From positions 2,135 to 66,134 of IMG/VR virus record IMGVR_UViG_3300046788_000091: 64,000 nucleotides of DNA, one strand, 5' to 3'. Each line of letters begins with the position of its first letter. The stretch's first letter is position 1. The notes under the pieces are model-generated. The model did no database searches, was not told where the DNA came from, and saw nothing but the letters and a program-made list of their open reading frames with translations. This document shows positions 34,926-36,811 of the stretch, in pieces. Position numbers and translations under genes: made by a program. This stretch comes from a virus (lineage: Duplodnaviria > Caudoviricetes).

Positions 34926-35297
34926 ATGATTAAGCAACCTAAATCCGGCTCCGGCCACGGCGACGGCTCCGGCCACGGCGACGGCTACGGCTACGGCCGC
35001 GGCTCCGGCACCGGCTCCGGCACCGGCACCGGCGACGGCGACGGCTACGGCCACGGCGACGGCCAAGGCCACGGCCACGGCAGCGGCACCGGCACCGGCG
35101 ACGGCGACGGCGGCGGCTACGGCCACGGCACCGGCTACGGCTACGGCTACGGCTCCGGCCACGGCCACGGCAACGGCACCGGCGACGGCGACGACAAAGA
35201 AATAATTATATATAAACTATCAGATTTAGATCTTACTCCCCTGTCTATCAACGAATATAGGAGCTTCTATGTTTCTCAAGAAAAAAGTGATTATTAG
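34926..35297 (+). CDS. (Gly-X)41 repeat protein, cassette 1 (123 aa)
   Basis: MIKQPKS-(GX)41[34 protein letters not shown]. Confidence 0.7.
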   Translation: MIKQPKSGSGHGDGSGHGDGYGYGRGSGTGSGTGTGDGDGYGHGDGQGHGHGSGTGTGDGDGGGYGHGTGYGYGYGSGHGHGNGTGDGDDKEIIIYKLSDLDLTPLSINEYRSFYVSQEKSDY

Positions 35298-35300
35298 AAT

Positions 35301-35519
35301 ATGCTTCTAAGACAATTTTGTATCTGTGGTCGAGAATATGAAGACGGCGAAGACTTTTGCCCAATCTGCCGCAACACTGTCTCTTTCACTATTGTAGAAG
35401 ATGAGTACAGGCCCCGCACTAAGTCAGGCAAGAGAGCTAAACGCCATGAATCAGATTGTGAGTGCTCTGTGTGCGAAGCGCACGGGACTCATCTAAGAGA
35501 GCTAAATTTTGATGATTAA
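35301..35519 (+). CDS. Small zinc-finger protein
   Basis: CICG..CPIC..HESDCECSVC. Confidence 0.55.
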   Translation: MLLRQFCICGREYEDGEDFCPICRNTVSFTIVEDEYRPRTKSGKRAKRHESDCECSVCEAHGTHLRELNFDD

Positions 35520-35889
35520 GCAACCTAAATCCGGCAGCGGCCACGGCCACGGCAGCGGCACCGGCACCGGCGACGGCCACGGCCACGGCAGCGGCCACGG
35601 CTACGGCGACGGCCACGGCAGCGGCCACGGCTACGGCGACGGCCAAGGCCACGGCAGCGGCCACGGCAGCGGCGACGGCAGCGGCGACGGCCACGGCAGC
35701 GGCTACGGCGACGGCCAAGGCCGCGGCAGCGGCCACGGCGACGGCCAAGGCCACGGCCAAGGCCGCGGCCAAGGCCACGGCGACGGCAAAGAAATAACTA
35801 TATATAAACTATCAGATTTAGATATTACTCCCCTGTCTATTAACGAATATAGGAGCTTCTATGTTTCTCAAGAAAAAAGTGATTATTAG
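35512..35889 (+). CDS. (Gly-X)42 repeat protein, cassette 2 (125 aa)
   Basis: Same termini as cassette 1; ATG overlaps the upstream gene end. Confidence 0.7.
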   Translation: MIKQPKSGSGHGHGSGTGTGDGHGHGSGHGYGDGHGSGHGYGDGQGHGSGHGSGDGSGDGHGSGYGDGQGRGSGHGDGQGHGQGRGQGHGDGKEITIYKLSDLDITPLSINEYRSFYVSQEKSDY

Positions 35890-36151
35890 AACGTTTTCGG
35901 CTGGAGTTCACTACGGAACACTGATCGAACGATCAGAAAAAGAAGTTTTATTGGGAAATGCAAAAAGAATATGGAATTGGTCGGGAGCCCTCACTCTTCA
36001 TGAGATGGCACTATTTGGATTGGACAAAAGTTCCAGAGTTTCGGCGCCTATTGAAGCGATTCTCTTGACAGAAGTAATTGAGATTTTACCTTGTACTACA
36101 AAAGCCGCGCAAATACTTGACTCTCAAGGCTGGGAAAAATCAGTCAAGTAA
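35861..36151 (+). CDS. Conserved phage protein resembling DUF6948 (recalled, not searched)
   Basis: [46 protein letters not shown]; AGGAG SD lies inside cassette 2. Confidence 0.7.
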
Positions 36152-36155
36152 TTTG

Positions 36156-36533
36156 ATGATTAAGCAACCTAAATCCGGCTCCGGCTCCGGCCACGGCTCC
36201 GGCTCCGGCTCCGGCCACGGCTCCGGCTCCGGCCACGGCTCCGGCATCAGTTCCGGCATCGGCAACGGCAATGGCACCGGCCAAGGCCACGGCTTCGGCT
36301 ACGGCCACGGCTCCGGCTCCGGCCACGGCTCCGGCATCAGTTCCGGCCACGGCGACGGCGACGGCCACGGCGACGGCTACGGCTACGGCAGCGGCGACGG
36401 CCACGGCGACGGCGACGGCGACGGCAACGGCAAAGAAATAACTATATATAAACTATCAGATTTAGATCTTACTCCCCTGTCTATCAACGAATATAGGAGC
36501 TTCTATGTTTCTCAAGAAAAAAGTGATTATTAG
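36156..36533 (+). CDS. (Gly-X)42 repeat protein, cassette 3 (125 aa)
   Basis: Same termini as cassettes 1 and 2; starts 4 nt after the DUF6948-like stop. Confidence 0.7.
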
Positions 36534-36811
36534 AAGCAAAACCGTGCCAATCTTGACAGATACCCGTCCTAGACAGTAAGCATCAAGATGCCCTTCCAAT
36601 TTCCCCCATTAGATTGGGATGATGTAACTCCCCTATACGGGTGGTATTCTGAGTTAATTGGTACTTTTGTAACACTGTTCTCATTCGGCTACAATTGGTG
36701 GCCTGATGTGATTGCTTTTCAACTTGATATAGAAGAGATGCCTTTCTGACTCCCTCAGAATTCATAGACTATGTTTTTAAGAGCATTCCAGAAGAGTGCA
36801 AAGACTCTTGC

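Follow-up and report, generated by a model that had tools for sequence, protein, structure and literature searches.

Three Gly-X dipeptide-repeat genes around a DUF6948 gene of a Caudoviricetes virus, an apparent His-rich variant of a two-gene phage module

The subject of this work is a window of 64 kb from a 66,134-nucleotide (nt) IMG/VR virus record (IMGVR_UViG_3300046788_000091, Caudoviricetes; record completeness 77%). Its rightward gene arm starts with a tight block of six genes, in the order ORF134, GX1, a zinc-ribbon-like open reading frame (ORF), GX2, DUF6948 and GX3 (Table 1). GX1, GX2 and GX3 encode long arrays in which glycine alternates with a variable residue (Gly-X). The locus is best explained if GX1-3 are genuine genes, translated together, whose products are acidic and intrinsically disordered proteins built of Gly-X dipeptide repeats, and if the three together are an amplified, His-rich variant of a widespread two-gene phage module consisting of DUF6948 and a Gly-X protein.

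Three Gly-X arrays between constant ends

Each of the three genes is composed of a constant head, an array of hexamers and a constant 3' block. The heads are the same in all pairs (24/24 nt) and the 107-nt 3' blocks match at 103-105 positions between copies (96-98% identity). Enclosed by these ends are 41, 42 and 42 Gly-X units in GX1, GX2 and GX3, respectively, ahead of a closing D/G-K, in proteins of 123, 125 and 125 amino acids (aa). Gly is encoded by GGC at 125 of 128 positions and X by NNC codons, the exceptions being CAA (Gln, seven times) and one AAT. Four consecutive GGCNNC hexamers with at most one mismatch occurred 103 times in the window, exclusively within the three GX arrays, versus not once in 100 shuffles. 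The GC content of the arrays is 76-80% compared with about 46% for the locus. An earlier note, made from the letters of this DNA alone, had described three ORFs with constant ends and GGC-NNN arrays whose X residues differ almost entirely between copies and had proposed a diversifying family. All of this was borne out: the genes form a real family and their arrays diversify. Only 3-7 of the 41-42 units agree in register between any two copies, and the longest common subsequence between arrays is about that of shuffled arrays (P 0.24-0.64). One six-unit block common to GX1 and GX2 (P 0.003) is the exception to the scrambled order, and GX3 contains an internal duplication of seven units (P < 0.0005).

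The commonest X residue in the window is His, with 8, 13 and 9 occurrences in GX1, GX2 and GX3. Thr, Gln, Arg, Asn, Ile and Phe are also found, while Ala, Pro, Val, Leu and Cys are avoided, although NNC codons permit them. Ser is encoded by TCC in GX1 and GX3 and by AGC in GX2, and the TAC and GAC codons of the arrays give way to TAT and GAT in the tails of the same genes. The net charges of the three proteins are -9, -6 and -7. Matches of the GX proteins to the Pfam family TrAA12 were below the cut-off and were rejected as low complexity.

The possibility that the triplication arose by misassembly was addressed with Logan contigs from the soil sequencing run that holds the stretch best. Each array start is joined to its own unique upstream flank with 100% identity, and no alternative joints were found in these contigs. 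The pieces end within the arrays, are interrupted once more in the repeated tails, and in no case cover an array, or the stretch, from end to end. The run is probably the source sample, hence these data provide consistency rather than independent support for the assembly.

The constant 3' end had been regarded as a tail of the GX proteins. This is correct insofar as it is shared by the three copies, but the same sequence is also the Shine-Dalgarno region and start of the DUF6948 gene. The 3' block of GX2 holds the Shine-Dalgarno sequence AGGAG, the start codon and the first 31 nt of DUF6948, and GX2 reads these 31 nt, which code for part of the first beta-strand of the DUF6948 domain, in the +1 frame. 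The 33-aa tail (pLDDT, predicted local distance difference test, 59-75 in AlphaFold2, with one short helix) is the translation of the DUF6948 leader plus its first 31 nt. Because GX1 and GX3 contain the same 31 nt, followed by unrelated sequence, they arose by duplication of a unit that began at the GX start codon and ended at nt 31 of DUF6948. The 29-nt overlap of GX2 and DUF6948 also contains a run of six A residues (35873-35878), and a +1 shift there would fuse GX2 to DUF6948.

The DUF6948/Gly-X pair and the evolution of its arrays

The gene between GX2 and GX3 matched Pfam PF22253 (DUF6948) with 91.4 bits (cut-off 27) over profile positions 1-83 of 85 (E-value 4e-26), so that the earlier designation as DUF6948-like was correct, as was that of the neighbor at 35301-35519 as zinc-finger-like. 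The note had also suggested that the GX family is linked to DUF6948, and this linkage proved to be general. A profile search of IMG/VR with DUF6948 yielded at least 567 loci, of which 80 were fetched. A (Gly-X)n array accompanies DUF6948 in 74 of these 80, nearly always on the same strand and with its start 10-50 nt past the DUF6948 match. In representative genomes of bacteria and archaea, a (Gly-X)n ORF lies directly downstream of DUF6948 in 67 of 71 loci with room for a downstream ORF, on contigs assigned to Proteobacteria, Firmicutes, Bacteroidota, Cyanobacteria, Acidobacteriota, Planctomycetota, Saccharibacteria and others. Family-wide, X is mostly Ser, Tyr or Asp. The profile phrog_18306 covers both partners, with GX proteins matching positions 60-142 and DUF6948 proteins positions 157-236. 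The DUF6948 family comprises 2,797 clusters at 50% identity (E-value ≤ 1e-3). Replication, recombination and nuclease genes are neighbors of the module. A constant third gene was not found; upstream and downstream neighbors fell into 16 and 10 Pfam families, respectively, each seen once. A literature search revealed no paper on DUF6948 or on these repeat proteins.

We consider it nearly certain that the window genes belong to this module. GX3 lies on the same strand as DUF6948 and starts 4 nt after its stop, and Gly alternates strictly over 41-42 units, well above a threshold of 12, in one codon dialect. In the window, X is not dominated by Ser, Tyr and Asp and the proteins do not end right after the array. 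The window is therefore a variant rather than a typical member, with His-rich X and a 33-aa tail. Few of the fetched DUF6948 loci have several GX copies, His-rich arrays or a non-repeat tail, and GX genes on both sides of DUF6948 were seen in one genome locus and one IMG/VR locus among those fetched.

Cultured phages that carry the pair include Ralstonia phage NK-7 (XCO36016/XCO36015), Pectobacterium phage Pappous (CDS0033/CDS0032) and Chlorobiaceae phage CV-1-33 (gene26/gene25), each with a DUF6948 (PF22253) gene and a Gly-X ORF behind it. The NK-7 homolog XCO36015 is annotated as 'fibroin heavy chain-like protein'. The window resembles these pairs in the DUF6948 domain, in a GX start within a few nt of the DUF6948 stop, in strict Gly alternation with a single dialect per array and in an acidic product. 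It differs in having three GX copies, two of them upstream of DUF6948, in His as the commonest X where Ser, Tyr or Asp prevail elsewhere, in the 33-aa non-repeat tail where most relatives end with '...G-stop', and in that each GX copy includes the first 31 nt of DUF6948. The GX start codon often overlaps the DUF6948 stop, as in two fetched loci, L004 and L005, and in phage CV-1-33 (L008). The GenBank coding sequence of CV-1-33 gene25 (L008:2783-3028) follows an Ala-Met/Ala-Leu frame, and the Gly-X frame (Gly-Tyr/Asp/Ser) is a different one; it starts at an ATG 14 nt before the DUF6948 stop and has a head, MDGIN, that resembles MGGIN in L004. In L004 itself (4268-4645; identical to L013), stops break the Gly-Ser/Tyr/Asp frame behind DUF6948, beside a G9 homopolymer, and a Gly-Pro/Thr/Met frame is open for 116 aa; a frameshift introduced by sequencing or assembly, or decay of this copy, is the likely cause.

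Within any one array a single Gly codon and a single third base at X are used. Six dialects were found over the 80 loci (GGC-NNC, GGC-NNT, GGG-NNC, GGT-NNC, GGT-NNT and GGA-NNT) with the same Gly plus Ser/Tyr/Asp composition. Taken together, the differences in dialect, the use of TCC or AGC for Ser, the TAT and GAT codons in the tails and the residues that are missing in spite of available NNC codons argue that selection acts on the amino-acid composition of the arrays, that their codon uniformity is not a bias at the tRNA level and that arrays are homogenized by slippage faster than silent changes build up, i.e. by a rapid concerted evolution that scrambles the order of the units.

Selection on array length, as put forward in the earlier note, stood in part. 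Over the family, lengths are widely scattered (12-70 units, median 35, standard deviation 12.5, n = 133 complete arrays) and there is thus no universal ruler length. Within a genome, paralogs are alike: three random draws would be as similar as 41, 42 and 42 with P = 0.0125, and for five other multi-copy loci the likeness within genomes gave P = 0.0009. Examples are L030 with 42, 41 and 41 units, L065 with 40 and 40, and L076 with 32, 35, 27 and 36. This fits either a genome-specific optimum or descent with little net gain or loss of units. The three loci (L030:2790-3670, L076:2809-3741 and L065:2802-3396) contain two to four GX genes in tandem. Their short heads are nearly identical, starts and stops overlap as ATGA, the arrays are scrambled (as comparison of the copies showed in L030 and L076) and lengths are similar; the pattern of constant ends and a scrambled middle therefore arose independently several times.

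A relative with about 95% identity in a rhizosphere run (X2) apparently has a GX1 that differs by about 8 units, which is only a hint as alignments of repeats are ambiguous. In the same relative, a 317-nt contig (corresponding to window positions 36049-36535) runs from the end of a GX tail over 4 nt into the last 100 nt of DUF6948 and on to the start of the next GX gene. DUF6948 would there have lost about 153 nt (51 codons) in frame; the contig may represent a true variant or an assembly artefact. Two wastewater runs (X3 and X4) contained GGC-NNC array-like words at very high summed depth and none of the unique flanks of the window, so similar hexamer arrays are abundant in other organisms there.

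Possible roles of the Gly-X proteins

The DUF6948 protein of the window was modeled by AlphaFold2 with a pLDDT of 94.3. The top 40 Foldseek matches of this model were nearly all Sm/LSm proteins (template modelling (TM) score 0.5-0.6, E-value about 2e-3), and VIA-align also placed Sm/LSm first (Z 8.4, root mean square deviation 2.0 over 63 residues). With its five strongly bent beta-strands in a small barrel, DUF6948 is confidently predicted to be an Sm/LSm-like barrel. The N-terminal Sm helix is absent from the model, and many relatives have an N-terminal extension of 30-40 aa. The family is mildly basic (median isoelectric point (pI) 8.6) and the GX proteins are acidic. Some 216-aa proteins (P0032 and P0036) carry two tandem DUF6948 domains per chain, which would be in keeping with a protein that usually functions as an oligomer.

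A search with a single sequence found no longer DUF6948 proteins; a profile search did find some. In P0011 a GX array, a linker and DUF6948 are united in one protein, in P0171 and P0130 DUF6948 has a Gly-rich or acidic C-terminal tail, and in P0023 it is fused to the C-terminal domain found after the GX array in L005, a domain for which no Pfam family was found. Zinc ribbons precede DUF6948 in P0006, P0020 and P0025, and other fusions involve AAA_24, ParB-like and DNA methylase domains. In the window, the genes are coupled in a way suited to co-expression, with a 3-nt gap between GX1 and the zinc-ribbon-like ORF, an 8-nt overlap of the latter with GX2, a 29-nt overlap of GX2 with DUF6948 and a 4-nt gap between DUF6948 and GX3.

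On the grounds of the fold, the fusions, the coupling and the genomic context we tentatively favor, at not quite even confidence, the reading that the GX protein, acidic and disordered, is a separate partner of an Sm-like hub for nucleic acids and acts by bulk properties. What would count is a length of about 85 residues, negative charge and Tyr or His spaced by Gly, and no fixed sequence. In this view DUF6948 would form an oligomer that acts on RNA or single-stranded DNA early in infection, with GX as its flexible tail or partner on a separate chain. GX might gate binding by mimicking nucleic acid, or else it might connect hubs to form larger assemblies. In the window phage, where His replaces much of the usual Tyr and Ser, such tails might respond to pH or metal. 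His-rich arrays are a rare feature of this phage that the family as a whole does not share.

Disordered tails of Hfq, SSB and LSm proteins are known to gate binding or to link assemblies. The acidic tip of Escherichia coli Hfq autoinhibits RNA binding, Acinetobacter Hfq has a tail of GGFGGQ repeats, and eukaryotic Sm B/D1/D3 and LSm4 have RG tails. The phage pair resembles these systems in combining a small Sm-type barrel with a Gly-rich, low-complexity, acidic segment that is predicted to be disordered, and in the rare single-chain forms P0011, P0171 and P0130. In contrast to the known tails, GX is usually encoded by a separate gene and is a strict dipeptide repeat; rings and RNA binding are only predicted for DUF6948.

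Several observations weigh against this interpretation. A Pfam scan of the window DUF6948 (E-value ≤ 0.01) matched DUF6948 only and gave no LSM or Hfq match. The conserved residues of the family (R10, AGV 14-16, RR 35-36, W38, W40 and E74) do not appear to be the classical Sm1/Sm2 RNA-pocket residues, and structural Z scores of 7-8 are middling. The net charge of DUF6948 spans -5 to +5. Fusions are rare, with no in-frame GX-DUF6948 fusion in 160 fetched loci. Finally, there are three GX genes per DUF6948 gene and GX1 lies apart from DUF6948, so that GX could act alone.

An alternative that we regard as unlikely, albeit worth weighing, is that the GX proteins are anti-defense decoys, i.e. acidic, disordered, DNA-like or bait-like proteins made very early and soaking up a host defense or DNA-binding protein, with DUF6948 as adaptor or chaperone and with an arms race driving the turnover of copy number and sequence. 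The position of the GX genes at the very start of the replication arm, the acidity of their products, the scrambled order between constant ends, a GX copy number that varies from 1 to 4 between phages and the differing array of the X2 relative would all be in line with this. However, a bait matched to its target would not be expected to keep a nearly constant composition of Gly plus Ser/Tyr/Asp in phages whose hosts differ widely, the partner DUF6948 shows high conservation, and slippage alone would give the scrambling.

We see only a slim chance that the DUF6948/Gly-X pair is a phage scaffold for a membraneless compartment, in which Sm-like rings and Gly-Tyr/His/Asp chains form a condensate. 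The rings would bind phage RNA or single-stranded DNA and the detached chains would link them around the replication and recombination machinery; three His-rich, length-matched paralogs would render the assembly switchable by pH or zinc, and a +1 shift on the A6 run could give a minor GX2-DUF6948 fusion like P0011. Low-complexity sequences that undergo phase separation include the [G/S]Y[G/S] domains of the FUS type and the GHGxY repeats of histidine-rich proteins from squid beak. Like these, the GX arrays intersperse Gly with Tyr, Ser, His and Asp, and no fold is predicted for them with confidence. Unlike them, they are shorter (about 85 residues), strongly acidic, strictly of period two and phage-borne, and condensation is hypothetical here.

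The remaining three explanations are unlikely. A regular fold of the arrays as a silk-like beta-sheet, polyglycine-II bundle or beta-solenoid, with the number of units setting the length of a ruler or fiber, appears very improbable; the earlier note had entertained a polyglycine or beta-solenoid ruler. The regular Gly-X pattern is reminiscent of crystalline blocks in silk fibroin, the NK-7 homolog is annotated as fibroin-like, and lengths are similar within genomes. Yet the array was predicted with a pLDDT of only 29-35 and a predicted TM score of 0.16, values that count as weak evidence and are no proof of disorder since the alignment comprised three sequences only; moreover, the numerous Asp and His side chains would repel one another if packed into a sheet and the family lengths range from 12 to 70 units. 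That the repeats are non-coding DNA elements, i.e. structures for replication or recombination with incidental ORFs, is hardly credible: all six frames are open across the arrays, their GC content stands out from that of the locus and one GenBank record called an array in the wrong frame, but a start codon and a conserved head and tail exist in the Gly-X frame only, the amino-acid set is kept across six dialects (Ser via both TCN and AGY codons), distant phages show coupling of the GX start codon to the DUF6948 stop, and in-frame fusions exist. We give practically no credence to diversification by a targeted mutator of the diversity-generating retroelement type, which would turn an AAC template into the observed NNC codons between constant, flank-like ends, as no reverse transcriptase (RVT_1, E-value ≤ 0.1) was found in the 66,134-nt, 77% complete record and the window has no fourth, AAC-rich array that could serve as template (only the three arrays match the hexamer pattern), Gln is encoded by CAA, other phages use NNT or mixed endings with only three X residues, and the copies, with their block duplications indicative of slippage, vary by order and number of units and not by substitutions at adenine sites. 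Hypermutation as cause of the differences in X is thus not supported.

With about 2,800 clusters at 50% identity, DUF6948 is a large family, and it is found in phages and prophages from many phyla. Its nearly constant companion is a dipeptide-repeat protein, which gene callers overlook or assign to the wrong frame. The pair offers a compact, testable viral case of a function that would be encoded by composition and length and not by sequence, and the cultured Pectobacterium and Ralstonia phages could serve as models. The window adds a natural experiment with three scrambled, length-matched copies and His in place of Tyr and Ser, and its clear duplication scars illustrate how the family amplifies.

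Neighboring genes and context of the locus

Table 1. Features at the start of the rightward arm (window coordinates)
Feature	Position	Strand	Properties
ORF134	34482..34886	+	First ORF of rightward arm, 134 aa, basic, pI 9.9; 39-nt gap to GX1
GX1 gene	34926..35297	+	123 aa: head MIKQPKS, 41 Gly-X units, 33-aa tail
GX1 hexamer array	34947..35192	+	GGC-NNC x41; Ser mostly TCC
GX1 constant 3' block	35193..35299	+	107 nt; last 31 nt (35269-35299) are a vestigial DUF6948 start
Zinc-ribbon-like ORF	35301..35519	+	72 aa, CxxC pairs; 3-nt gap after GX1; stop overlaps GX2 start by 8 nt
GX2 gene	35512..35889	+	125 aa, 42 units; all nine Ser are AGC; last 29 nt overlap DUF6948
GX2 hexamer array	35533..35784	+	GGC-NNC units
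GX2 constant 3' block	35785..35891	+	DUF6948 leader: AGGAG 35851-35855, ATG at 35861, A6 run 35873-35878
DUF6948 gene	35861..36151	+	96 aa, predicted Sm/LSm-like small beta-barrel, pI 9.2
GX3 gene	36156..36533	+	125 aa, 42 units; canonical position, 4 nt after DUF6948 stop
GX3 hexamer array	36177..36434	+	Two AGT-TCC (Ser-Ser) units, duplicated 7-unit block
GX3 constant 3' block	36429..36535	+	Last 31 nt (36505-36535) are a vestigial DUF6948 start
Primase/helicase-type replication protein	36812..39349	+	845 aa; phrog_2478 DNA polymerase/primase, E-value 4.6e-20; DUF5906 match weak

The primase/helicase gene marks the rightward arm as the replication arm, and the GX cassettes, which the earlier note had placed among the first genes of an arm, are indeed located at its start. 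The arm further encodes a MazG-like protein, a PD-(D/E)XK nuclease, a family A DNA polymerase, a MoxR-type ATPase and three tRNAs. The leftward arm carries the structural genes including that for the large terminase (30351-31802).

For ORF134 a family search gave no match, and the zinc-ribbon-like ORF was assigned to no Pfam or PHROG family. A scan of 33700-36900 for sigma-70 promoters and terminators stayed at the level of shuffled sequence. Comparison of 33000-40000 with 50,697 phage records by blastn gave no match. Close relatives in IMG/VR were not found by a search with a GX2 peptide pattern, and a primase pattern gave one weak match, L091. No RNA run was among the sequencing runs listed as containing the stretch.

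Two further observations concern genes at some distance. The first gene of the leftward arm (33355-33855, minus strand) contains a zinc-ribbon segment and weakly matches the HNH endonuclease family phrog_374 (E-value 6.6e-7). In the replication arm, 20 kb from the GX genes, a MoxR-type AAA ATPase and a DUF2201_N (VWA-linked metallopeptidase-like) protein are encoded at 56958-58082 and 59781-61049.

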